A stretch of DNA of 31,588 nucleotides from Candidatus Melainabacteria bacterium (GTDB taxonomy: Bacteria; Cyanobacteriota; Vampirovibrionia; Obscuribacterales; Obscuribacteraceae): assembly GCA_020853845.1 (NCBI GenBank), contig JADYYD010000321.1:1-31588 (forward strand), written 5' to 3'. Positions 484-23,439 of the stretch are shown in pieces. The notes under the pieces were generated by a model, which saw nothing but the letters and a program-made list of their open reading frames with translations, ran no database searches and was not told where the DNA came from. Within the stretch, counting starts at the first letter, position 1. Each line of letters starts with the position of its first letter. The translations under genes were made by a program, and so were the position numbers.

Positions 484-1071
484 GTGGCTACACCACTCGC
501 CGAAATCCTTCATAACATTGCCGATCACACAGAGACCATTCTCAATGTGATCAATGATCCGAACATCCCTGGGGACGTTTCGCAGCGATTGTTTTCCCAC
601 ATCCTTTTAGAGGAAAAGGAAAACACCGCCAAGCTGGAAGAAATTCACGGCGCAGGCCCGACGCTGCTTACGCAAAAACTTCTTGACCACAGCTTCTTCA
701 TTCAACGCATGCTCCAAGAGCAAGCGATGTCCATTGATCTGAAGCGTGAATTGCTCGATCACTTCATGGAAGAACACCTCGAGTGGCGTGCAGAACTTCT
801 GGGACCGGACGCGCCCCCTCATGGTGGTGGCAAACCAGGGGTGGTATCAAATTTTGGAACGCACCAGGCTCGCCCTGCCGGACAAGGCGGTGGCAGAAGT
901 CATGGCGGGCAGAGTGCCAGTGGCGTTCACGGCGGGCACTCATCAGGCTATACGAATGATTCGAGTAAAACCGGTGACTCCGGTCGTTCCGAACAAAAAG
1001 GAAAACCCGGCACCGCTGGTGCTATCAAAAAAGAATGGACTGTTGGACCACTATGGTCGCAAGGAGGCTAA
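484..1071 (+). CDS. Encapsulin cargo candidate: His/Glu-rich helical domain (ferritin-like or hemerythrin-like), a Gly/His-rich disordered linker, and a C-terminal targeting-peptide-like motif
   Basis: GTG start. An N-terminal domain of about 105 aa carries HxxxE, ExxH and EEH motifs (FSHILLEE, LEEIHG, DHFMEEHLEW). It is followed by an ~85-aa Gly/Ser/His-rich low-complexity linker (HGGGK, RSHGGQ, GVHGGHSSG). The C-terminus reads KKEWTVGPLWSQGG, which resembles family-1 encapsulin targeting peptides of the TVGSL type. The stop codon lies 2 nt before the shell gene. Confidence 0.55.
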   Translation: MATPLAEILHNIADHTETILNVINDPNIPGDVSQRLFSHILLEEKENTAKLEEIHGAGPTLLTQKLLDHSFFIQRMLQEQAMSIDLKRELLDHFMEEHLEWRAELLGPDAPPHGGGKPGVVSNFGTHQARPAGQGGGRSHGGQSASGVHGGHSSGYTNDSSKTGDSGRSEQKGKPGTAGAIKKEWTVGPLWSQGG

Positions 1072-1073
1072 CT

Positions 1074-1931
1074 GTGTGGAAGATGCACCAAAAGCTGTCT
1101 GAACTGCCTCTGACGAACGAACAAGCGTCAGACATGATTCAAGCAGCCGCTCAAGAAGTTCGGCGGACTGTTGTTGGTCGCCGATTGATAGCGCTCTTCG
1201 GACCGCTCGGCGCCGGGGTGGAAAGCGTGCCGCTTGAAACCATCAAAGATGACGAACCTGCTGAAGTGGATCTCGAAGGCAGACCTGATACCAATCCGAT
1301 CGGAACACATGAGAAAGAAACTTATGTGCGTGTCCCGCTTCTGTACAAAGATTTTTGGCTGCACTGGCGTGATGTGAAGTGGAGTCAAGACATGCATGCT
1401 CCGATCGATATCACCAATGCTGTTCGCGCCGCTCACCAGGTTGGCGATGCCGAAGACGACCTCATCTTCAACGGTTCGAAATCGCTCGGTATCAACGGAC
1501 TTCTCAACTATCCTGGATCTCAAAAAATCCAAGGCGGTGATTGGAAAGTTCCGAATGAGCCTGTAAAAGACGTTTATGCCGCCATCGCTAAATTGATCGC
1601 AGCGCACCACCATTTTCCATACGCGCTGGTTTGCTCGTTGGACATGTATGAAACGTTGCTCAAGCCGGTGAAAGAATCACCAGCTCTCGAACTCGATCAG
1701 TTGAGCAAGCTTTGCCTGGATGGAATTCACTGGAGCCCGATGATCGAAAAAGGAACGGCTGCTGTAATTTCGACCGGCGCGCAGAACTTCGATATCGCTG
1801 TGGCAGAAGATTTGCAGATCGCATATCTCGGACCCAGCGACATGAACTATCGCTTCCGTGTATACGAATCACTGGTGCTTCGTGTTAAACGCCCGACGGC
1901 TGTTTGTGTGATTAAGTCGAAGAGCAGCTAG
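1074..1931 (+). CDS. Family-1 encapsulin shell protein (HK97-fold, linocin M18-like)
   Basis: The translation aligns by eye with T. maritima and M. xanthus encapsulins: PLTNEQ...IQAAAQEVRRTVVGRRLI, then FNGSKSLGINGLLNYPG, then YALVCSLDMYETLL, then the C-terminal AYLGPSDMNYRFRVYESLVLRVKRP. AGGAGG at 1062-1067 sits 6 nt from the GTG at 1074. An in-frame ATG at 1083 is an alternative start. The track ORF at 1035 starts too far upstream. Confidence 0.85.
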   Translation: MWKMHQKLSELPLTNEQASDMIQAAAQEVRRTVVGRRLIALFGPLGAGVESVPLETIKDDEPAEVDLEGRPDTNPIGTHEKETYVRVPLLYKDFWLHWRDVKWSQDMHAPIDITNAVRAAHQVGDAEDDLIFNGSKSLGINGLLNYPGSQKIQGGDWKVPNEPVKDVYAAIAKLIAAHHHFPYALVCSLDMYETLLKPVKESPALELDQLSKLCLDGIHWSPMIEKGTAAVISTGAQNFDIAVAEDLQIAYLGPSDMNYRFRVYESLVLRVKRPTAVCVIKSKSS

Positions 1932-9687: not shown

Positions 9688-10812
9688 ATGAAAATTACAA
9701 AACGAATCAAGATTTTTGTTGCATTGGCAGTGGTACTGCCCATGGTTTGTATTGAACCATCATTCGCCCGCGGTGGATTCGGCGGTGGTGGCGGTCGCGG
9801 ATTCGGCGGCGGCTTCGATAGAGGCGGCATGGGCGGTTTTGACCGCGGTGATTTCGGACGCGGGGATATGGGACGCGGCGACTTCGGCCGCGGCGATATG
9901 GGCAGAGGCGACGCGTTCGATCGTTTCAACGACAATTTCGATCATCCTGGCGACTCTGCATTTGGTGGCAACAATACTGGTATCAGAGCTGGTGAAAACG
10001 GAGTCAGAAATTTTGGTGATGCGGACAGGAACAATTTAGCCGGAGATGGCGGGTTCTGCCGTATCATGGATAATCCCGCCACAAGCTGGGCCGGTAGAGC
10101 CGGTACATACGGTATGTCACCGAGAGCTCTTGCCGATCACTGGAATAACGTCAATGGCAATTTTAATCACTGGAATTATTTCGATCGCAACTGGTGGGGC
10201 AACCATCACTGGTACTGGTGGAACAGAAACTGGGGCGATGATTGGGCGTGGGGTTGGACCGGTTGGGGGGATTTAGGCGGCTGGTGGGGAATGGATGCAG
10301 CTACTGAGCCGGTCTACTACGATTATGGAAACAACATCACATACAATGGCGACAGTGTCTATTACGGGTCGCAGCCCCTCGAGTCGACCGATGCCTATTA
10401 CGCTCAGGCTCAAGCTCTTGCAGAGACGGCACCGCCAACACCGACTGCTCCCGTTTCGGACGAGCAGCAGAAAAAAGACGTCGATAACATGAAACCACTG
10501 GGTGTGTATGCCCTGGTTTCAGGAGATCAGAACAACAGCTCCCAACTGCTTCAGCTTGCCGTTGACAAAAAAGGCGTGATTCGCGGCACTTATTACAATG
10601 AAGTGACGGCTGAAAGCAAGCCGGTTTCCGGAGCAGTCGATAAGAAGAATCAGCGCGCTTGCTTCACGATAGCAGGCAATAAGAACGTGGTGTACGACAC
10701 GGCAATCGGAAACTTGTTGAAACAGTCAAGTCCGATTCTGGTTCACTATTCCAAATCGAATACCCAGCAACTCACGCTTGTGCGTTTGAAGAAACCGACG
10801 ACTGCTTCGTGA
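9688..10812 (+). CDS. Secreted protein with a Gly/Arg-rich segment carrying four tandem RGD motifs, a Trp-rich segment, and a C-terminal globular domain
   Basis: Signal peptide (MKITKRIKIFVALAVVLPMVCIEPSFA). Then RGGFGGGGGRGFGGGFDRGGMGGFDRGDFGRGDMGRGDFGRGDMGRGDAFDRF. Later a Trp-rich stretch NHWNYFDRNWWGNHHWYWWNRNWGDDWAWGWTGWGDLGGWWG, about 13 W in 45 aa. A ~150-aa C-terminal domain follows. Confidence 0.55.
   Translation: MKITKRIKIFVALAVVLPMVCIEPSFARGGFGGGGGRGFGGGFDRGGMGGFDRGDFGRGDMGRGDFGRGDMGRGDAFDRFNDNFDHPGDSAFGGNNTGIRAGENGVRNFGDADRNNLAGDGGFCRIMDNPATSWAGRAGTYGMSPRALADHWNNVNGNFNHWNYFDRNWWGNHHWYWWNRNWGDDWAWGWTGWGDLGGWWGMDAATEPVYYDYGNNITYNGDSVYYGSQPLESTDAYYAQAQALAETAPPTPTAPVSDEQQKKDVDNMKPLGVYALVSGDQNNSSQLLQLAVDKKGVIRGTYYNEVTAESKPVSGAVDKKNQRACFTIAGNKNVVYDTAIGNLLKQSSPILVHYSKSNTQQLTLVRLKKPTTAS
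9841..9912. repeat. 30-nt tandem duplication encoding GRGDFGRGDM x2
   Basis: gacttcggccgcggcgatatgggc.. and the related gatttcggacgcggggatatggga. Confidence 0.6.
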
Positions 10813-10817
10813 CGCCT

Positions 10818-12731
10818 CTAAGAATCGAAGGTTGCGCCTGTCTCTTTGCAGTGTGCAGTGATCACATCCAGGAAGGTTTGACCGAGGTCTCGCAACTTCG
10901 AGTCTCCGATGCCGCTGACCATTCGCATTCTTTCCAGGCTGGAAGGTCGAATGCGAGCTAATTCGCGCAGCGTCGCATCGTTGAAGATGATATATGGCGG
11001 CACGCGTCGCTGGTCGGCCAGCTCCCTGCGCAAATCACGCATGGTTTCAAAAAGATCGCGATCGACACCATCCCATGATCCCGTTTCCGCTCTGGAAAGT
11101 TTTGCGCGCTCGCCTTTCTTTCTTTCTGCCGGTTTCAACAATCGAATATTTGTGCGTTGCCCGCGCATCACCTGCCAGGAGCCGCCGTTCAATTTTAAAA
11201 TTGGTACAGCGCGCCCATAACCAAGGTCGATGTTTTCCTGCACCAGAACTTCCTGACTGATGAGTTGATACATCCAATCGCGCAGATCGTTAACGTGGTG
11301 CTCTTTCAGCAATCCATAAGTGCTCACGTTTTGATCCCCGCGGTTGCGTATTTCTTGCGAATTTTCACCGCGCAGCACGGCAGCGACATAGCCGATGCCG
11401 TAACGCTCTTTCAATCTTGCGATGCACGAGAGTATTTTCTGTGCAATGACCGGCGCTCCCTCGACTTCAATAGTTTCACCAAGGCAAATGTCGCAGGCAC
11501 CACAGCTTTCTTTATCGTATGTCTGGCCGAAATGCGCCACCAGAAGCGAATGGCGGCAGGCTGCACCACGGCAATATCGGTCGATTATGTGGAGATGCTC
11601 GTATGCCGTTTCCAAATAAGAGAGATCATTGTCCTGGTATTGAAACTGATTTTGATTTTGTTCCGATGCGGCTTTCTGCATGATTGCCTTCCATGTGAAG
11701 ACATCTGCGCCGGAATGCAGCAATACGCATTCCGCTTCCAAACCGTCTCTTCCGGCTCTGCCGGTTTCTTGCTGATAGGCTTCCAGCGACTTCGGCATTG
11801 CCGTGTGAAGAACATAGCGAACATTGGATCTATCGATGCCCATGCCGAAGGCAACAGTTGCCACCACGACGTCGCAGTGCTCTTCTGAAAATGCTTCTTG
11901 TGTTTGCGATCTTTCCTGTGACGTCATTCCGGCATGATAAGCCATGGCTTTTATGCCTGCCTGTTTCAGCTCGGCAGTCAATTCGTCTACTTCCGCCCTT
12001 CTTATGCAATAAATAATTCCGCCTTCGGATTTGTGGCGGTCGATTACCGATAGAACCTGCTTCAACAGTCCGCCCCGGCGCGACATTATGCGATAAGTCA
12101 AATTGGCGCGATCGAAATTGCCGACCAAAATTTCGGGATCATTCAAATTCAGGTTTTGAATGATGTCGCCGCGCACCTGCTCGGTTGCCGTTGCCGTATA
12201 AGCGTGAACGGACGCTTTGGGAAACATCGATTTGAGAAGGCGAAGTTGTCTGTATTCCGGACGGAAATCATGCCCCCAGTGGCTTATGCAATGCGCTTCG
12301 TCGATTGCGAACGTGCGCACGTCTATTTTGCGCAGCAAATCCTGCATGTCTGTTTGCACCAGTCTTTCCGGCGACACGAAAAGCAGACGCACGTGTCCGG
12401 CAAGGATATCCTTTTCGTGCTGTTGGCGCTCTTCCGGAGTAAGAGAGCTGTTTAGCTGAACAGCCGCAATTCCTGAAGAAATCAAACCGTCCACCTGGTC
12501 TTTCATGAGCGAAATAAGCGGGGAAACAACTACCGTGGTATCTCCGCGCACGACGGCTGGCGCCTGAAAGCAAAGTGATTTCCCGCCGCCCGTCGGCATC
12601 ACGACGAGCGAATCGCGTCCGTCCAGCACCGCACACATGGCCGGCTCTTGCAAGGGGCGCAGCTTATGGATACCCCAGTGCTTTTCGACGATCGCATTTA
12701 GCTGTGAAATTTGCGAAGGGAGCGTTTGCAT
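10818..12731 (-). CDS. recQ: ATP-dependent DNA helicase RecQ
   Basis: Walker A PTGGGKS; DEAH box as FAIDEAHCISHWGHDFR; helicase C-terminal motifs (TVAFGMGIDRSNVRYV); the RecQ zinc-binding module CGACDICLG; and a C-terminal HRDC-like region. Confidence 0.93.
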   Translation of the reverse strand: MQTLPSQISQLNAIVEKHWGIHKLRPLQEPAMCAVLDGRDSLVVMPTGGGKSLCFQAPAVVRGDTTVVVSPLISLMKDQVDGLISSGIAAVQLNSSLTPEERQQHEKDILAGHVRLLFVSPERLVQTDMQDLLRKIDVRTFAIDEAHCISHWGHDFRPEYRQLRLLKSMFPKASVHAYTATATEQVRGDIIQNLNLNDPEILVGNFDRANLTYRIMSRRGGLLKQVLSVIDRHKSEGGIIYCIRRAEVDELTAELKQAGIKAMAYHAGMTSQERSQTQEAFSEEHCDVVVATVAFGMGIDRSNVRYVLHTAMPKSLEAYQQETGRAGRDGLEAECVLLHSGADVFTWKAIMQKAASEQNQNQFQYQDNDLSYLETAYEHLHIIDRYCRGAACRHSLLVAHFGQTYDKESCGACDICLGETIEVEGAPVIAQKILSCIARLKERYGIGYVAAVLRGENSQEIRNRGDQNVSTYGLLKEHHVNDLRDWMYQLISQEVLVQENIDLGYGRAVPILKLNGGSWQVMRGQRTNIRLLKPAERKKGERAKLSRAETGSWDGVDRDLFETMRDLRRELADQRRVPPYIIFNDATLRELARIRPSSLERMRMVSGIGDSKLRDLGQTFLDVITAHCKETGATFDS

Positions 12732-12915: not shown

Positions 12916-12957
12916 AAAATATGTCATAAGTTCAGGGTTGCAAGTAGGAGTCCGTTC

Positions 12958-14568
12958 ATGTCCCGAATATTCAGTCGCAGAAAAATTCTGGGCGCAGCAG
13001 CTCTTGGCGCTGCAGGGATGGTGTTTGGTCGTAAACTGCTTTCTGAGGCTGGTGAGGGAATCAGCAAATGGAATGCAGGCGGAGTTGGTTCGAACGAACT
13101 GCCGGCCAGCACGGAGATAGTCAATGCAGGCAAACTCAAACAATCGTTTGAAGAATTAGGTCAGTATGTATACCTGACTCCCCAGAAATTGGGCGGCGGC
13201 ACTCACGCGGTGGATTTGAATTCGGGGCGCACGCTGGCGTGGATAAGTTACTGGAACTACGGCGACTCTTGTCCGATTTCGCACCATTTGGCTGCCTACC
13301 CGTCGCCCGATCCGTACAAAGGTTTTGAATTCATCAATTCGACGCAAGGTGGCGACAATGTCATGATATATGGCTTGCCGACCCGCATCAAAGAGCGCGG
13401 CATGCTGGGCAAATGGGGTATGGGCAACCATATATATCGCGTCCAGTTTGATGGACAGTCGATGAATCTGATGGAAGACGTGGCGGAAACGACCGGCATC
13501 GGACTGGGCGTCCACACGACGATTTATCCTGATGCATCCGGCTTTGCAGGAGCAGATGGTCAAAAAGATGTGTGCGCATTTTTCAATCGCGCGGTCGGCT
13601 CTGAGAAGACGCAGGTTCAGATGGCTTTTCGCGCCGACTGGATAGGCGCCACTGCTAATGGTGGCATGGAAGAAAACTGGTCGAAGGGTGGAAAAATTCG
13701 CTTGACCAGATTGAACGCCGCCAAGGAAACCGGCAAGTATGATCTGGAAGGCACCAAGGGCAATAAGATTGACTGGGAAATGGTGCCGATGGCTGAGTAT
13801 CTGGTTTACACCGGACAGTTGCCGGGTGATTCGCCAAAAACGCTAACTGGTCTTGATGCGGTCGTGCATCATCCGGGCGGGCGATACTCCGCTCTGATTA
13901 TTCGCATGCTCTCCTGCGCGATCATCGTCGACAGGCACAACTGGGAGCCGGTCTGCTGCCTGCATTGCCCCGAAGGTTCGCCCGGCAATTTGCCCATAGC
14001 TAAAGTCAGCTCTGGTCCGGACACCTGGGAAATTAAACTTGATGACGTCAAATGCGTCGGGCACGAAGCCGGATTTTCTCCCGACGGCAAGTCATTCTTG
14101 ATGATGAACAACATCAAGCAGAACAACATGGCAGTGTTCGATACCGCCGATGCCGATCCTCGCAACTGGAAGAAGATTACTTTCGTAAAAGATCCAACCT
14201 GGAGCGGTGACTATCCGAGTCCGTTCCATCTGTGCTTTTCGGTAGATGGAAGCAAAATGTTCGTCTCCGTGCTCTATCCAAAACCAGCCAACAGCGGCTG
14301 CTGCGTTGTCGATACTAAGACATGGAAGATCATCAAGAAATTCCAGAATATCGGACCGGATTGCCAGACGATGGCTGTCACTTATGACGGCAAATATGTC
14401 TTCCAAATTTTCAGCGGATTCCAGAGATTATCCAGCGGTGCATTTATCTTCACCCAAGATACACTCGAGCCGATTGGCTATCTGCCCAATTTCGGCGGGC
14501 ACCATGACTGCGTAATCGTTCCGACCAAAGCCGAGCAGTTGAAGAACAGCCGCTGCACCACCCTTTAA
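12958..14568 (+). CDS. Tat-exported His-rich beta-propeller metalloprotein related to the NosZ N-terminal (CuZ) domain and thiocyanate dehydrogenase, with no CuA cupredoxin domain
   Basis: Start at the ATG at 12958, with AGGAG 8 nt upstream. Twin-arginine signal MSRIFSRRKILGAAALGAAGMVFG. Spaced His-containing motifs run along the protein: ISHHLAAY, GNHIYRVQFD, GVHTTIY, VVHHPGG, CCLHCPEG, VGHEAGFSPDGK, FHLCFSVDGSKMF, GGHHDCVIV. By eye these resemble NosZ CuZ-domain blades (CHHPH, DGKYLF, PLHTTF, EPHDC). The protein ends 19 residues after HHDC, where NosZ continues into its CuA domain. No CuA signature (CxxxC...H...M) is present. Confidence 0.55.
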   Translation: MSRIFSRRKILGAAALGAAGMVFGRKLLSEAGEGISKWNAGGVGSNELPASTEIVNAGKLKQSFEELGQYVYLTPQKLGGGTHAVDLNSGRTLAWISYWNYGDSCPISHHLAAYPSPDPYKGFEFINSTQGGDNVMIYGLPTRIKERGMLGKWGMGNHIYRVQFDGQSMNLMEDVAETTGIGLGVHTTIYPDASGFAGADGQKDVCAFFNRAVGSEKTQVQMAFRADWIGATANGGMEENWSKGGKIRLTRLNAAKETGKYDLEGTKGNKIDWEMVPMAEYLVYTGQLPGDSPKTLTGLDAVVHHPGGRYSALIIRMLSCAIIVDRHNWEPVCCLHCPEGSPGNLPIAKVSSGPDTWEIKLDDVKCVGHEAGFSPDGKSFLMMNNIKQNNMAVFDTADADPRNWKKITFVKDPTWSGDYPSPFHLCFSVDGSKMFVSVLYPKPANSGCCVVDTKTWKIIKKFQNIGPDCQTMAVTYDGKYVFQIFSGFQRLSSGAFIFTQDTLEPIGYLPNFGGHHDCVIVPTKAEQLKNSRCTTL

Positions 14569-14592
14569 TGCGGTAACTCGAGGCGAGAGGCA

Positions 14593-15897
14593 GTGGTATC
14601 ACAACAAGCAGGCAGACAACCCGGGCGGCGTCCTGGTGCCGCGTTGTTTCTCTTTACGCGGCTGGCGCTGCAGAATGTTTTGCGCAAGCCTGCCCGAACA
14701 ATCATGCTTGTCGTTGCCGTGACTTTGTCTACCGGCGGCGTGTTTGCATCATATACGGTGGCAAACGGCATCAAAGACAGCATGGATACCAGTTTCTCCC
14801 GCATGGGTGCAGATCTTATCGTTGTTCCTGCCAGGGCGATGGTCAATATAACCAGTGCGCTTTTAACAGTTCAGCCTACGGACGAGACGCTGGATGCGGG
14901 TCTCGTTTCCGAATTGGAGAAGATGGATGGAATTGCGCAGGCCGCACCACAAACATATTTTCAGGTTCCCATCATGTCCGGCATGCCTGAATGCAAGGCG
15001 AACCTTATCGCATTTGATTCAAAAAAAGATTTCACAATAATGCCATGGGTGGTGGCCCGCGCACCGAAAGCAATGGCGCCTGGAGATATCCTCGCCGGCA
15101 GCAGGCGCTCGGAGACGGTGGGTGATGAAATCTCTCCCTGCAACGTACCATGCAATGTATACGGTAAGCTTGGCCGTAGCGGGGTGGGTCCGGTCGATGA
15201 TTCTTTCTTTACCGGGTATGAAACGATCAAGCTTTTGCAATCGAAGATCAAGGAACGCTCCGGTACTACAGGCGGTGCGAGTTTAAAAACCGTAAAAGAT
15301 CCTTCTGATTCTCTTGCCGCTTTCGACCCATCTAAAATATCCGCGATTTTGGTCAAGCTGAAATTCGGTGCCACCCCTGAGCAGGCTCGTTTCGCGATAG
15401 CTAAATTGCCGGGTGTAAAAGTCGTAAGCGGAGCTACTATCGTGACTTCGACCAGACAGGCGACGACGGCGCTGCTCGCTGGGATGCTGGGATTCACCGC
15501 CATGATGTTGGTGGCAATGTTGATTATGGTGAGCCTTCTTTTCTCAGGTATTATTTCTGAGCGACGCCGAGAAGTAGGGCTCCTTCGCGCCATCGGTTCT
15601 CGCCACAGAGACGTAATGGGAATGTTGCTTGCGGAGGCTGTTTTCACTACCTCGCTGGGTGGAGTGACCGGTATCATATTTGGTTCCGGCTTACTCTTGC
15701 TGTTTCAAAGATCGCTTGTTTATTACCTCGAGACTTTGCACGTTGAGTTTGTCTGGCCCCAAGCAATGACTTTCGTTTGGGTCGGTCTTTGCTGTTCAAT
15801 TGTGTCTGCTCTGGTTGGCCTCTTGGGCGCACTGGTGCCCGCGTGGCGAGCCAGTCTGGAAGAGCCGTATTTGCTGATTCAAAGTGAGGGCGGTTAG
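14593..15897 (+). CDS. MacB/FtsX-family ABC transporter permease: one N-terminal TM, a large periplasmic domain, and three C-terminal TMs
   Basis: GTG start 24 nt after the upstream stop. Topology: TM1 (IMLVVAVTLSTGGVFASYTV), a ~250-aa extracytoplasmic domain, then three hydrophobic helices. ISERRREVGLLRAIGS is the typical FtsX/MacB motif. Confidence 0.75.
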   Translation: MVSQQAGRQPGRRPGAALFLFTRLALQNVLRKPARTIMLVVAVTLSTGGVFASYTVANGIKDSMDTSFSRMGADLIVVPARAMVNITSALLTVQPTDETLDAGLVSELEKMDGIAQAAPQTYFQVPIMSGMPECKANLIAFDSKKDFTIMPWVVARAPKAMAPGDILAGSRRSETVGDEISPCNVPCNVYGKLGRSGVGPVDDSFFTGYETIKLLQSKIKERSGTTGGASLKTVKDPSDSLAAFDPSKISAILVKLKFGATPEQARFAIAKLPGVKVVSGATIVTSTRQATTALLAGMLGFTAMMLVAMLIMVSLLFSGIISERRREVGLLRAIGSRHRDVMGMLLAEAVFTTSLGGVTGIIFGSGLLLLFQRSLVYYLETLHVEFVWPQAMTFVWVGLCCSIVSALVGLLGALVPAWRASLEEPYLLIQSEGG

Positions 15898-17309
15898 TGC
15901 TTTCCGTCATTTCGGCAACCAAGAGTTATGGCGGTGAACGATCGGTTGACGCCGTAAAAAATGTCAGCTTCGAACTGGAGCAGGGGAAATCGCTGGCGAT
16001 TGTTGGGCGCTCAGGTTCCGGCAAGTCCACTCTCTTAGGTATGATCGGCGGCATCAGCCGACCGACAGCAGGACAGGTTCTTATCGATGGTATCAATCAG
16101 TGGGGTCTCAGTGACAACGAGAGAGCCGAATTACGCAATCAAAAACTCGGCTTTGTTTTTCAATTCGCAAGCCTTCTTCCATCACTGAGAGCGATCGATA
16201 ATGTTGCTTTGCCATGCTTGATCTCCGGCAAACTGAGCGGCAGCGAAATTTATGCACGCGCACGAGCTTTATTAGATCGCGTTGGGCTTTCGCACAGAGC
16301 CGATGCCTATCCCGGGCAATTGTCCGGCGGTGAGCAACGCCGAGTTGCGATTGCGCGCGCACTTGTGAATTCACCGAGCTTGTTGCTTGCCGACGAACCG
16401 ACTGCCGATCTTGACGAGATAACGGAAGGCGAAATCCTCAGCTTGCTTTTGGACATACATAGAGCGTTGAACATCACGCTTGTTGTGGTGACGCACAATC
16501 CGGAAATAGCGGCAAGAGCGGACAGCGTAATTGAGATGCGCAGCGGAGAGGCTGCCGCCAAGGAATTAGTTGTCAAAGAACCGGCAGCCCCATCAAACAC
16601 CGGCACGCCGCATGATGCAAGCGTTGAAGAAGCGGCGCGAAGCATATTCGAAATTTCACCGCAGCAGGCTTCGACTCATAAAGTGCGGCTTGGTGAGGGA
16701 CTGGAGCGTTTTCTCGGACGCTTCGTGATGTGGCTTGTTCCTACGTGTCTCATCGCCTGGGGAATCAACTGGGCGGCCGAAAAGTACGAAGCCGATGTGA
16801 TCGAGGCTAAAGCGCAGCAGCGATTGGCGCTGGAAGAGTTAGGCATGCAGGGCTTGCGCGCCGATGTGAAGAGTGTCGAATTCGGCAGCGGCAAAACATA
16901 TGTCGTCACCATTTATTTGCGTAATACCAGGGGTGATGATCCTTTGTATGTGATGTCGCCGACCTTCAGGACTTTCGTTCAGGTCGCAACGAGCTGGTTG
17001 GAGATCCCAACAAAGCCGATTAAGACCGGGTCCGGGCAGGTGCTTAAAATTACAGGCACGCAATTGCTCACTTACGAAATCGAGCCTGACGTTCCGAATT
17101 TCACACAACTGCTGCCTTACTACATGCACGTTCGTTTCACCAACGACATGTTGATAAGTCCTCGCAGCCAGCCAAAAGATGATCTGATCGAACGCAATGA
17201 CAGCTACTACGTCTATTTGAAACCACACGATGCTGATGACAAAGCGATTCTCAGCAAAATGAAATTTCCGGAAAAGCCGCCGGTGTGGATTCCGATGCCA
17301 CCTCATTGA
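15897..17309 (+). CDS. ABC transporter ATP-binding protein (LolD/MacB-type) fused to a C-terminal TM anchor and a ~200-aa extracytoplasmic domain
   Basis: GTG start overlaps the permease stop (TAGTG), which suggests translational coupling. Walker A GRSGSGKST; Q-loop region FVFQ; ABC signature LSGGEQRRVAIARAL; Walker B LLLADEPT. After about residue 225 comes a Pro/Ala linker, then a hydrophobic helix FLGRFVMWLVPTCLIAWGINWAA, then about 200 further residues with no recognisable motif. Confidence 0.75.
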   Translation: MLSVISATKSYGGERSVDAVKNVSFELEQGKSLAIVGRSGSGKSTLLGMIGGISRPTAGQVLIDGINQWGLSDNERAELRNQKLGFVFQFASLLPSLRAIDNVALPCLISGKLSGSEIYARARALLDRVGLSHRADAYPGQLSGGEQRRVAIARALVNSPSLLLADEPTADLDEITEGEILSLLLDIHRALNITLVVVTHNPEIAARADSVIEMRSGEAAAKELVVKEPAAPSNTGTPHDASVEEAARSIFEISPQQASTHKVRLGEGLERFLGRFVMWLVPTCLIAWGINWAAEKYEADVIEAKAQQRLALEELGMQGLRADVKSVEFGSGKTYVVTIYLRNTRGDDPLYVMSPTFRTFVQVATSWLEIPTKPIKTGSGQVLKITGTQLLTYEIEPDVPNFTQLLPYYMHVRFTNDMLISPRSQPKDDLIERNDSYYVYLKPHDADDKAILSKMKFPEKPPVWIPMPPH

Positions 17310-17366
17310 GCCGGCTAAAATGTCAACAACAACTTGCCGGCAGCAAACTCTTTTGAATCAACATGC

Positions 17367-17399
17367 AAAAAGGGCAAGTCTCTTGACTTGCCCTTTTAT
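17367..17399. terminator. Bidirectional intrinsic terminator shared by the ABC operon and the convergent RRM gene
   Basis: aaaagggcaagtc tctt gacttgcccttttat: an 11-bp perfect stem with a 4-nt loop, flanked by A-run and T-run. Confidence 0.6.
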
Positions 17400-20703: not shown

Positions 20704-20799
20704 ACATCCTGAAATCGCCGGTCGGCATTTAACAGAACGCCCAGGGCTGCTAAGCTTGTGAGGTAGGCTATGCCTGCCAAAGTTTGAGCCGTGTGCCAG

Positions 20800-23439
20800 A
20801 TGTCTGACAACGATCCCAACATGGTTCTCCAGGACTTGGAGAAGGCAAAACAATCGTTCAGCAGCGGAAATTATGCCGTTGCCGAACCGCTGCTGCGAGA
20901 CGTCTTCGAAAAATTGGATTCACACCCGCTTGAGAGGGCTTACGTTTCCGAGTGCCTATCCGAAATCTATACTGCCTGGGGAAAGTTTTCAGAGGCAATC
21001 AGACTCAATCAGCGTTTGATCAATTTGACTGCGGCAAATCCCGCTCAAAGTCTCGCTGCTTTGAGTGGTGCCCTCGAGCGCATTGCTGCGGTCAGCCTTA
21101 AAGTCGGCAAAAAAGAACAGTCGGATAAACTAAATCGATTAGCCGCCGCCGTTAAGGCGGGCAAGATCGACGTCAAGACACTGGTCACCGAAAAAGCCAA
21201 AGTTCCGATGGCTCCGCCCACTACGGAACATACATATACTTTCAAAGCTCTTGGTCCAGATTCCCCGCCGCCCGAGCCGTCATCACCTGAAAAGAGTTCG
21301 GCGCCGGCTGCTCCGGCGGCACCAGCGGTTCAATCATCACCAGATGTTCCACCGGCATCAACCCCTTCAGCGAATTTCTCCATACCGTCTAATTATGCTG
21401 TTCCAACAGCGCCGGTTGTTCCACCTGCAAATCAACAATCTCCTGATGTGCTTGCAAGACCCACAAAGGAAACGGCAATGTTCTCCAGACCGAGCATGCC
21501 GAAATCTTTAGATGCAGACGTGACCCAGGCTCAGCCGCCAACTGCATCTGTGCCGCCGGCGCCGGCCTCTGTGCCACCATTTCCAGCACCTCATGTACCA
21601 GCAAGCCAGGGAGAAATACCTGATTACCAACTGGCTGATTTTGACGAGGAAATCGCAATTTCCGCACCACCTGCGACACCACATGCAGACGCACCGGTTG
21701 TGACTCCACAGTCAGAAACGCCCCAATCAATAGCTGAAACGTTTGAACCACCCCCTGAGTTGTGGGGACCGCCTGAGAGCACACCCGAAGATTCCGCAAC
21801 AGCGCAGCAAGAGGCATCAACACCTGCCGACGGTGCCGATATCTGGGGCGCGCCTTCGAGTGAAAGTGCGGAAGTCCATGATGAGTGGGGACCGGCCGAG
21901 CCGTCTGAAGTTTCGCCTGCGGATACCTGGGGCGCTCCGGAGCTGCCGGTACAACCTCCGGCGCGGCAATGGCAGCATCCTGCGACCATAAGCCAGACCG
22001 CGGCTGCGCTAAAGCTTCAGTCGGCGCAAACACCGGCGCCGCAAGAAACGCCTTCTAATCCTGACACAGTTGAATCGCCTCGACAGATTGGGGAATCTTC
22101 CATACTTGAAGAGCAACCTCCTGAGGTTGAAGAGCAAACTTTCAGTGCAAGTGATCTGCAAAGTGTCGTTTCGCAAACACTTTCCTCCCAATCATTACCA
22201 TCTCAGTCAGCGCCTGCACAGTCTGCCTCGAGTGTGCGCAGCATGCGGTCGATGTCGTCGAGAAACATGGCTGCGCCTCCCATGGCAGGCGCTCCCGATA
22301 TGGGCGGACTGATTGGAATGATCGCTCAATTTTTCGTCGGAAAAAGAGATCCCGATCAACCGGTGCAAGAATTGGTTGATCCAAGCACCACCTCCGCCAA
22401 AGCCGCAGCCGCAATGGTGGTGATGGTTAGCATTGTTGTCGGTTTGGCTTATGTGGCTTATCATATGCCGCGCAAACTCAGCCCCGCGGATGCATACAGA
22501 GCAATTCAGCATAAGTATGTTTCCACTGATTCAACCAAGTCTTTAGTTTTGACCGACCCCACATCTTGCGAGTTTGCGGTCGGTGAAAAAAAGATGCCTG
22601 CGAAATTGCGCTTTTATCTCGATGATTGGCGCGATGCAGTCGATATGTCGCTTGGTCGCGTCGGCGAAAAGCAAATTTGGCTGGTTAGAACTGGTGACGG
22701 GATAGTCGATGAAGATCAGATAAAGCTTTATGTGAATGGTGGTGCCGAACTCCAACTCGCCAGCAGAATCGATTTTCTCAATCAGTATGCCACCATGCAG
22801 TTTCAAAAGGTGAAGAGTTATCCTGCTCGCGGCAATTTAAATCCTGCAATTGATCTGCGCTATTTAAATCCGTATACCAAGAAAAGAGAAATGCCTCTCT
22901 TCTTTAAGGTAGTGATTGGCAAAGGTTTGGCTTCTCATGAAGCTGATCAGGCCCGTACTAAATTCTATGATGCTTTGCTTTCGGGTCAGGTCGCTCCGGA
23001 AACACCGAAAGCGAATCCTGGTGAGATTCGCTGCTATGCCGTCGATTTTTTGAGTCCTCGCGGGACAATCGAAGGTTTTGTAGTTCAGTTAATCGGCAAA
23101 GATGGCAAACCGCTGAGTGGTGTTCGTCCGCATTCGAGCTATCTGTTTGCGCTCGAGGACGGCAAAGAATACAAGCCGACTGAGGCCGGCGTGCTGCCGT
23201 TCAATGGGGAGCCAGGTTTGCGTCCGGCTGTTGTGTGGCTTTTGATGGACAAACTCGATGAGACTTTTGTTCTTATTCTGTCTTCTGCGCCGGTAATAAT
23301 TTTCACGATAATGACTTTTGTTTTTCTGATTTTGTCATTCGTGGTACCACGCGGTTTGGGGCGCGCGGTGTCTGTGTTGCTCTTGGTTCTCAGCGCTATT
23401 CCTGCGCTTCTATTCTGTCTGGTGAAAGTGCTGCCTTAG
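20800..23439 (+). CDS. Large membrane protein: N-terminal TPR-like helical domain, a Pro/Ser/Ala-rich disordered acidic region with four [DE]xWG[AP] motifs, a TM, a ~330-aa domain, and C-terminal tandem TMs
   Basis: ATG 20800 (the track has GTG 20791). Motifs ELWGPPES, DIWGAPSSES, DEWGPAEPSE, DTWGAPELP. Hydrophobic stretches AAAMVVMVSIVVGLAYVAY and the C-terminal LILSSAPVIIFTIMTFVFLILSFVV plus AVSVLLLVLSAIPALLFCLV. No enzymatic motif found. Confidence 0.55.
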   Translation: MSDNDPNMVLQDLEKAKQSFSSGNYAVAEPLLRDVFEKLDSHPLERAYVSECLSEIYTAWGKFSEAIRLNQRLINLTAANPAQSLAALSGALERIAAVSLKVGKKEQSDKLNRLAAAVKAGKIDVKTLVTEKAKVPMAPPTTEHTYTFKALGPDSPPPEPSSPEKSSAPAAPAAPAVQSSPDVPPASTPSANFSIPSNYAVPTAPVVPPANQQSPDVLARPTKETAMFSRPSMPKSLDADVTQAQPPTASVPPAPASVPPFPAPHVPASQGEIPDYQLADFDEEIAISAPPATPHADAPVVTPQSETPQSIAETFEPPPELWGPPESTPEDSATAQQEASTPADGADIWGAPSSESAEVHDEWGPAEPSEVSPADTWGAPELPVQPPARQWQHPATISQTAAALKLQSAQTPAPQETPSNPDTVESPRQIGESSILEEQPPEVEEQTFSASDLQSVVSQTLSSQSLPSQSAPAQSASSVRSMRSMSSRNMAAPPMAGAPDMGGLIGMIAQFFVGKRDPDQPVQELVDPSTTSAKAAAAMVVMVSIVVGLAYVAYHMPRKLSPADAYRAIQHKYVSTDSTKSLVLTDPTSCEFAVGEKKMPAKLRFYLDDWRDAVDMSLGRVGEKQIWLVRTGDGIVDEDQIKLYVNGGAELQLASRIDFLNQYATMQFQKVKSYPARGNLNPAIDLRYLNPYTKKREMPLFFKVVIGKGLASHEADQARTKFYDALLSGQVAPETPKANPGEIRCYAVDFLSPRGTIEGFVVQLIGKDGKPLSGVRPHSSYLFALEDGKEYKPTEAGVLPFNGEPGLRPAVVWLLMDKLDETFVLILSSAPVIIFTIMTFVFLILSFVVPRGLGRAVSVLLLVLSAIPALLFCLVKVLP

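Follow-up and report, generated by a model that had tools for sequence, protein, structure and literature searches.

A stretch of 31,588 nucleotides from Candidatus Melainabacteria bacterium (contig JADYYD010000321.1 of assembly GCA_020853845.1, hereafter the window) contains at positions 12958–17309 a module of three genes. They encode a propeller protein related to thiocyanate dehydrogenase (TcDH), a permease of the FtsX/MacB type, and an ATP-binding cassette (ABC) ATPase fused to a periplasmic domain (genes 1, 2, and 3, respectively; Table 1). The segment is filled by the three open reading frames (ORFs), all on one strand, and chance is not an issue since the ORFs are long and have very strong homologs. 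A 24-nt gap separates the TAA of gene 1 from the start of gene 2, and in the string TAGTG the GTG start codon of gene 3 overlaps the TAG stop codon of gene 2; the sequence reading thus agrees with the coordinates and junctions given in a preliminary description of the locus. By homology, the region is a self-contained, minimal form of the TcDH gene cluster.

The propeller gene and its Gln variant

The N-terminus of gene 1 (MSRIFSRRKILGAAALGAAG) carries a twin-arginine motif, with a weak score against TIGR01409 (12.5 bits, below the 16.7 cut-off), and residues 1–48 are disordered in the AlphaFold2 (AF2) model. A twin-arginine translocation (Tat) motif has also been reported for TcDH (PMC5328954). 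Residues 56–535 match TcDH in a phmmer search of the PDB sequences, with E values of 6e-157 (8yu5), 3e-156 (8q9x), and 3e-138 (5f75), the first two entries being the Pelomicrobium enzyme and the third the enzyme of Thioalkalivibrio paradoxus. The identity to the characterized TcDH is 45–51% over the full length, and the seven-bladed β-propeller fold of TcDH is found in gene 1 as well. Histidine residues are present at positions 109–110 (an HH pair), 186, 369, and 424. The chain ends at ...GGHHDCVIVPTKAEQLKNSRCTTL, with no domain beyond the propeller. None of the Pfam and NCBIfam models covers gene 1, and the family is small: a search of 1.84 billion cluster representatives gives 297 homologs at E≤0.001. 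A relationship to NosZ, the nitrous oxide reductase, was rejected as a specific claim, as no NosZ match was obtained in Pfam or NCBIfam, and phmmer against the PDB at E≤1 gives TcDH and one weak match to hydrazine synthase beta only.

These results bear on several points of the preliminary description. The relationship to TcDH had been guessed there and is borne out by the phmmer matches, and the observation that the chain stops after the propeller, where NosZ continues, is also correct, while the resemblance to NosZ itself is not reflected in Pfam, NCBIfam, or the PDB search. Lack of conservation of the propeller histidines had been set beforehand as a possible refutation, and these residues are conserved among the homologs. 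The proposal of a distinct metalloenzyme family does not hold at the level of a family; judged by homology, gene 1 belongs to a subfamily of the known TcDH family.

Thirteen active-site residues of TcDH are listed in a published alignment (PMC6504805, Fig. 4): Lys103, His135, His136, Gln156, His206, Glu288, Asp314, His381, His437, His482, His528, Asp529, and Arg544. Gene 1 keeps 12 of them, and the position of His482 is occupied by Gln470, encoded by CAG. In the structure of the Thioalkalivibrio enzyme published in 2020, His482 is reportedly a ligand of the third copper (Cu3). The family is further characterized by three copper ions per subunit and by the conversion of thiocyanate to cyanate and sulfur. 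With 12 of the 13 residues present, gene 1 is classed here as a Gln-variant homolog of the TcDH family and not as a proven EC 1.8.2.7 enzyme.

Glutamine occupies the His482 position in all 120 best database relatives (67–93% identical to gene 1), and the best 80 species genomes have Gln in 78 cases, Glu in one, and a truncated sequence in one. A sequencing error as the source of Gln470 was rejected, because Gln is found throughout the clade. In a joint set of 242 sequences, Gln is present in 166 and His in 75, and the neighbor-joining tree of this set has one clade with all 75 His-type sequences and no Gln-type, and another with 162 of the 166 Gln-type. The split is accompanied by two other changes (T. 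paradoxus numbering), F104L beside Lys103 and Q382E beside the copper ligand His381. As His is retained in more distant relatives (27–35% identity), Gln is the derived state. Two PDB entries, 6sji and 8yu5, which are among the two best matches for each of the studied enzymes, are engineered His-to-Gln mutants, as seen in the alignments; 8yu6 is a further entry of this kind.

At the protein level, the window sequence is 97% identical to the metagenome-assembled genome (MAG) 'Cyanobacteria bacterium PR.3.49', and it groups with MAGs of Melainabacteria/Obscuribacterales. Other hosts of the Gln-type gene are Planctomycetota, Verrucomicrobiota, Solibacteraceae, Acetobacteraceae, some filamentous cyanobacteria, and Methylococcales. 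The literature searched contained no earlier account of the Gln clade or of TcDH in its phyla; one source names some members of the clade 'thiocyanate desulfurase'. Some homologs of 590–750 aa have N-terminal extensions before the RR motif without a domain match. In Gln-type homologs of ~741–750 aa (P0080, P0102, P0120, and similar ones), the extension comprises ~200 residues with a high content of Ala, Glu, and Arg. The extensions may reflect wrongly annotated start codons or genuine cytoplasmic parts of the proteins.

It is conceivable, though in our opinion unlikely, that the Gln-type propeller is not a TcDH but a related copper enzyme with a remodeled (possibly dinuclear) site and another substrate, the accessory role of the ABC system remaining the same. 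One of the 13 published residues is replaced across the 166-sequence clade, together with F104L and Q382E, and the hosts (Melainabacteria, Planctomycetota, Verrucomicrobiota, and methanotrophs) are mostly not sulfur oxidizers. His-to-Gln mutants of both studied enzymes have been deposited in the PDB (6sji and 8yu5), so the position is considered important. On the other hand, Gln is itself able to ligate copper, and all of the other 12 residues, among them the Lys, His136, and Glu proposed to be catalytic, are invariant. A distant group from Afipia (33.7% identity to 5F75), which keeps the His, has been linked to thiocyanate degradation (PMC8061750). Since this group and the classical type are both linked to thiocyanate, its oxidation is the parsimonious ancestral function, which also counts against a different enzyme. 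In any case, Gln-type sequences outnumber the His-type among the relatives sampled, and the active site of this branch differs from that of the characterized enzymes. Inferences about thiocyanate cycling drawn from metagenomes may thus rest on an assumption about the activity of Gln-type proteins, in which a published active-site residue is absent.

The ABC genes and the fused β-sandwich

Gene 2 matches Pfam FtsX with an E value of 4e-16 (59.5 bits, cut-off 25.5) and, in residues 36–271, Pfam MacB_PCD with 28.1 bits (cut-off 27). A transmembrane (TM) helix at its N-terminus is followed by a periplasmic domain and then by three TM helices at the C-terminus, and the matches in the PDB are weak (MacB, LolC, and YtrF, E 6e-7 at best). 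Residues 1–225 of gene 3 match ABC_tran of Pfam (E 8e-35) and LolD in the PDB (E 1e-57), as well as the models of LolD (TIGR02211, E 3e-70), MacB (E 1e-53), and FtsE (E 2e-52); as all three model scores lie under the equivalog cut-offs, they indicate membership in the class and not orthology. By these matches, genes 2 and 3 encode an ABC system of the MacB/FtsX type (type VII). Compared with the first permease/ATPase pair of the His-type TcDH operons, gene 2 is orthologous to the permease (34% identity, E 6e-76), and the ATPase shows 50% identity to its counterpart.

The surroundings of the Gln-type gene were surveyed in 80 loci, taken from the best 80 species-genome matches to gene 1. In 63 of the 74 loci that could be evaluated, the TcDH-like gene is followed directly by the FtsX permease; the complete set of three parts is found in 47 of 55 loci. 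Represented are Melainabacteria, Planctomycetota, Verrucomicrobiota, Acidobacteriota, and Cyanobacteria, and the commonest junction between permease and ATPase is a stop/start overlap of 1 or 4 nt. No gene for a MacA-type membrane-fusion protein or an outer-membrane channel was found in the window module or among the conserved neighbors in the 80 loci; HlyD and RND genes lie downstream in one methanotroph locus only. A MacAB-TolC tripartite pump was rejected as a candidate, the genes for MacA and the outer-membrane partner not adjoining. An AhpC/TSA protein of the thioredoxin fold (E 4.5e-6), membrane-anchored and with C-D-C instead of CxxC, adjoins the Gln-type gene in 17 loci of Planctomycetota and Verrucomicrobiota (L022, L023, L026, L047–L049, L051, L052, L056, L060, L065, L073–L076, L078, and L079). 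It echoes the thioredoxin-like 'sulfur acceptor' gene located next to TcDH in Guyparkeria and Thiohalobacter (PMC6504805).

In the C-terminal ~245 residues of gene 3 there is one hydrophobic helix (272–294), which lies within a long helix of the AF2 model corresponding to residues 267–319. In 57 of 59 loci, the ATPase and this C-terminal part are encoded together by one ORF. Invariant in the fused domain are N343, Q362, W367, Y409, H411, R433, D435, Y438, and L441, and the exact ending M-P-x-H is found in 56 of the 57 fused homologs. His, Met, and Trp are typical ligands of Cu(I), and the fusion points to a short list of candidate functional residues: His411, Trp367, and the Met-Pro-x-His tail. 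A Pfam search with the fused domain and 94 relatives returned no family. When compared with the PDB chains, the β-sandwich has no match by sequence, and by fold it resembles generic sandwiches only.

Two permease/ATPase pairs lie directly downstream of TcDH in Thioalkalivibrio, and their permeases have one N-terminal and three C-terminal helices (PMC5328954, PMC5744179). During growth on thiocyanate, the permease/ATPase genes are up-regulated 4.5–6.7 log2-fold and a gene for a single-TM hypothetical protein 5.1 (PMC5744179). Copper uptake was suggested for the permease/ATPase genes without evidence (PMC5328954, PMC5744179). The pairing of TcDH with permeases of FtsX topology and ATPases is, therefore, already published. 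We found the classical layout in three His-type loci (Burkholderiaceae, another proteobacterium, and Nitrospiraceae), as TcDH, permease, ATPase, permease, ATPase (unfused, 221–243 aa), and two hypothetical proteins of ~210–230 aa. A profile of the C-terminal part of gene 3 matches proteins encoded on their own at the His-type loci L081, L083, and L085 (E 3e-62 to 1e-37). The best of these, L081_13912 and L083_15484, likewise end in MPPH, and the free-standing homologs match in layout the single-TM 'hypothetical protein' of the Thioalkalivibrio operon. Judged by these matches, the extension of gene 3 is the same protein that is encoded separately as 'hypothetical' in classical TcDH operons, and because it is fused to the ATPase in the window module, the 'hypothetical' membrane protein of the operon probably works with the ABC ATPase. 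As far as the comparison extends, what is new here is the fusion of the ATPase to a TM helix and a periplasmic β-sandwich ending in Met-Pro-x-His.

Downstream of gene 1 there are thus the permease, the ATPase, and the single-TM protein of TcDH loci, the last as a fusion. The module is regarded as a compact TcDH operon, because its permease and ATPase are orthologous to the first His-type pair and the extension corresponds to the hypothetical protein. In the His-type loci L081–L085, we also observed two paralogous single-TM β-sandwich proteins, one of them ending in MPPH, and a third small protein with a weak profile match (E ~1e-4). The Nitrospiraceae locus additionally encodes a YtkA-domain protein and has tatA/tatC adjacent.

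The preliminary description had proposed a MacB/FtsX permease and a LolD/MacB-like ATPase with a fused periplasmic domain, and the Pfam, TIGR, and PDB matches confirm both. Its statement that these partners are not of the NosDFY type was also right, as the permease is of the FtsX type without homology to NosY or NosD, and the linkage to FtsX and ABC genes expected there was found in the locus survey. The gene order had been called inverted with respect to lolCDE, but it is not, since lolCDE is itself permease-first. The idea of a dedicated maturation machine raised there is plausible as a hypothesis. The His-to-Gln change and the correspondence of the fused domain to the 'hypothetical protein' of the operon had not been noticed.

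Signals, flanking genes, and other features of the window

The coordinates of the module and its signals are collected in Table 1. The context of the Shine-Dalgarno sequence (CAAGTAGGAG) is kept in nine of nine aligned Melainabacteria loci. Farther upstream, the core TTGTGCAA.AATA is invariant in all nine Melainabacteria regions (L001–L009), with diverging sequence on its 5' side, and this leader motif may be a regulator site. An Rfam search with the leader region gave no match. A TTGAC(A/G) box located 5' of the motif is kept in seven of the nine regions. On the other side of the module, a strong hairpin is placed between gene 3 and a convergent gene for an RRM protein, and it is probably a bidirectional terminator closing the operon. 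It was not called by the consensus terminator scan, and the promoter and terminator scans of the window performed no better than on shuffled sequences.

Table 1. Features of the TcDH-like module (positions in the window)
Feature	Position	Strand	Description or basis
Leader motif TTGTGCAA(A/G)AATA, ~40 nt 5' of the gene 1 start codon	12909..12921	+	alignment of 9 upstream regions
Shine-Dalgarno AGGAG of gene 1	12946..12950	+	sequence reading
Gene 1 (TcDH-like propeller, Gln-variant subfamily)	12958..14568	+	536 aa, ATG start
Putative Tat signal region of gene 1 (residues 1 to ~31; SRRKIL, then hydrophobic stretch)	12958..13050	+	translation
CAG codon of Gln470 in gene 1	14365..14367	+	codon read directly
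Gene 2 (FtsX/MacB-type, type VII ABC permease)	14593..15897	+	434 aa, GTG start
Gene 3 (ABC ATPase fused to periplasmic domain)	15897..17309	+	470 aa, GTG start
ABC ATPase domain of gene 3 (residues 1–225), LolD/MacB/FtsE class	15897..16571	+	profile and PDB matches
Single TM helix of gene 3 (residues 272–294, FLGRFVMWLVPTCLIAWGINWAA)	16710..16778	+	hydrophobic stretch in translation
Periplasmic β-sandwich of gene 3 (residues ~320–470), undescribed family	16854..17306	+	nine invariant residues
C-terminal tail Met-Pro-Pro-His of gene 3, stop codon directly after	17295..17306	+	sequence reading
Hairpin AAGGGCAAGT-ctcttg-ACTTGCCCTT, A and T runs on flanks	17366..17399	.	sequence reading

The genes flanking the module encode a RecQ-like helicase (10818..12731, opposite strand; identified by its translation), the RRM-domain protein, and an M13 peptidase. 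As they are unrelated to copper, sulfur, or cyanate metabolism, the module stands alone. No genes for a sigma-54 two-component regulator, copCD, tatA, or flavocytochrome c were found near it.

Elsewhere in the window, an encapsulin shell gene is located at 1035..1931 on the + strand (Pfam Linocin_M18, E 2.7e-55). It is preceded and overlapped by an ORF of 195 aa, helical and rich in His and Glu, the pair spanning 484..1931 (+). A Gly-rich linker is present in this ORF, and its C-terminal ...KKEWTVGPLWSQGG resembles a cargo-targeting peptide of encapsulins; no Pfam match was found for this candidate cargo. Two low-complexity proteins without a family match are also encoded on the + strand: a secreted one of 374 aa, rich in Gly, Asp, and Arg and in Trp (9688..10812), and one of 882 aa with a Pro/Ser/Ala-rich middle part and hydrophobic helices at the end (20791..23439).

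Possible role of the ABC system and comparison with known systems

The known members of the MacB/LolCDE/FtsEX class act on the periplasmic side and not as solute importers. The best overall explanation of the module, which we hold at slightly less than even confidence, is a minimal TcDH operon for a copper-binding, thiocyanate-oxidizing enzyme with ABC-driven delivery of copper in the periplasm. The Gln-type enzyme would still bind copper and oxidize thiocyanate or a close analog, with the third copper site altered. The ABC complex would import nothing; instead, ATP hydrolysis in the cytoplasm would drive movements of the periplasmic FtsX domain and of the tethered β-sandwich, with two sandwiches facing the periplasm per ATPase dimer. 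The β-sandwich, which carries the invariant His411 and Trp367 besides the Met-Pro-x-His tail, would hand copper to the Tat-exported apo-enzyme, as NosDFY does for CuZ. Nitrous oxide reductase (N2OR) leaves the cytoplasm through Tat as apo-enzyme and acquires its copper sites in the periplasm, and nosDFY, directly downstream of nosZ, is strictly required for CuZ formation (PMC8457098). The delivery step itself, ATP-driven and toward exported apo-TcDH, is proposed by analogy and is tentative, somewhat more so than the explanation as a whole. It is favored because of the periplasmic action of the class, the conserved His and Trp with the Met/His tail, and the NosDFY precedent.

The reverse direction, copper uptake into the cytoplasm by the ABC system for loading before Tat export, appears very improbable and is considered the least likely of the alternatives concerning the ABC system. 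No importer is known among the FtsX/MacB-type systems, with their four TM helices per subunit, and no gene for a solute-binding protein is present. The idea was raised for Thioalkalivibrio (PMC5328954, PMC5744179), and it is in line with the copper requirement of TcDH and with its Tat signal; the same authors, however, did not find the features of copper-transporting ATPases or a metal-binding domain (PMC5744179). The related Tat substrate N2OR, moreover, obtains its metal in the periplasm (PMC8457098).

Several observations weigh against copper delivery in the periplasm. Both the binding of copper by the β-sandwich and its contact with TcDH are predicted by analogy. Recombinant TcDH can reportedly be loaded with copper in vitro without helpers. 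Met410, adjacent to the invariant His411, is conserved in only 38 of 57 homologs, and no conserved His, Met, or Cys is found in the periplasmic domain of the FtsX permease. The loss of a copper ligand in gene 1 could mean a different metal stoichiometry or substrate, and no genes for a copper chaperone, cytochrome c, or cyanase are present near the module in the window. Finally, the Gln-type gene occurs without ABC genes within 8 kb in nine Methylococcales, one Nitrospirota, and one Schlesneria, so the ABC machine is not always adjacent; no consistent alternative neighbors were found in these loci. The solitary Methylococcales loci (L016, L017, L021, L025, L028, L029, L039, L043, and L053, the last with Glu) contain neither ABC nor β-sandwich genes.

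MacB-type systems expel periplasmic substrates, and the ABC system might, although this seems improbable to us, clear or pass on the zero-valent sulfur (or polysulfide) that TcDH releases in the periplasm and so keep the active site unblocked. The TcDH reaction gives elemental sulfur (PMC9456337). A sulfur-atom acceptor has been postulated at other TcDH loci with an adjoining thioredoxin-like gene (PMC6504805), and the AhpC/TSA-like protein beside the Gln-type gene in Planctomycetota and Verrucomicrobiota would be in line with such a role. The window, however, has no thioredoxin-like neighbor, and no gene for a membrane-fusion or outer-membrane partner is conserved beside the module. The periplasmic domain conserves His, Trp, Tyr, and Arg with the Met-Pro-x-His tail, and no conserved Cys, usual in sulfur carriers, is found in it.

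Systems of the FtsEX class regulate enzymes of the periplasm but carry out no transport, and the ATPase and the permease match the FtsE (E 2e-52) and FtsX models, respectively. An ATP-driven conformational change could, in the same manner, activate TcDH or tether it at the membrane, e.g., for coupling to an electron acceptor; as no gene for an electron acceptor is present in the module, membrane contact could matter. Nothing in the data indicates a regulatory contact, and the characterized TcDH, once purified, is a soluble enzyme of the periplasm and shows activity when cytochrome c or ferricyanide is supplied (PMC6504805). We judge a role of this kind to be rather improbable, slightly more so than the handling of sulfur.

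A bolder version of copper delivery, to which we give a low probability, would combine two novelties: the Gln-type propellers as a distinct class of copper enzymes, with a remodeled third site and possibly another substrate, and the fused ABC partner as a new Cu(I) insertase acting by the tethered β-sandwich with the Met-Pro-x-His tail. If true, a MacB/FtsX-type machine would be the non-homologous counterpart of NosDFY, and the class would be widespread in Melainabacteria, Planctomycetota, Verrucomicrobiota, and methanotrophs. TcDH, the only enzyme known to have its trinuclear copper site, has potential interest in the bioremediation of thiocyanate. The window locus reduces the TcDH system to three genes and offers two leads, the Gln-type copper site and the Met-Pro-x-His β-sandwich fused to a type VII ABC ATPase.

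In comparison with the TcDH (EC 1.8.2.7) of T. paradoxus and Pelomicrobium methylotrophicum (PDB 5F75 and 8Q9X), gene 1 shows full-length homology, a twin-arginine motif (a putative signal), and 12 of the 13 published active-site residues, whereas the Gln in place of His482 and the separate clade set it apart. The window host is a non-photosynthetic relative of cyanobacteria and not a sulfur oxidizer. The His-type operons likewise have an FtsX-type permease and an ABC ATPase directly after the TcDH gene, but in two pairs instead of one, and their single-TM accessory protein is separate and not fused to the ATPase. The genes for a sigma-54 two-component regulator, copCD, tatA, and flavocytochrome c found at His-type loci are missing from the window module.

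The window permease shares with MacB, LolCDE, and FtsEX a C-terminal FtsX domain and a periplasmic core like that of MacB, and the ATPase is closest to the LolD, MacB, and FtsE models. The permease is, however, only weakly similar to the solved members, the ATPase has an extra TM helix and periplasmic β-sandwich, and there are no conserved partners of the MacA/TolC type and no link to lipoprotein or cell-division genes. The likeness to NosDFY(L) is a functional analogy only: ABC-type genes directly follow the gene for a propeller enzyme that binds copper and is exported by Tat (both predicted in the case of gene 1), and a cytoplasmic ATPase is combined with an accessory protein domain in the periplasm. 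Membership in NosDFY was rejected on account of the FtsX-type permease, the β-sandwich without a family match, and a client other than NosZ. There is no homology between the two systems: NosY belongs to the ABC-2 permeases and has six helices, and NosD is a periplasmic protein of another kind (PMC8457098), whereas the window module has a four-helix FtsX-type permease and a small β-sandwich as its periplasmic part.

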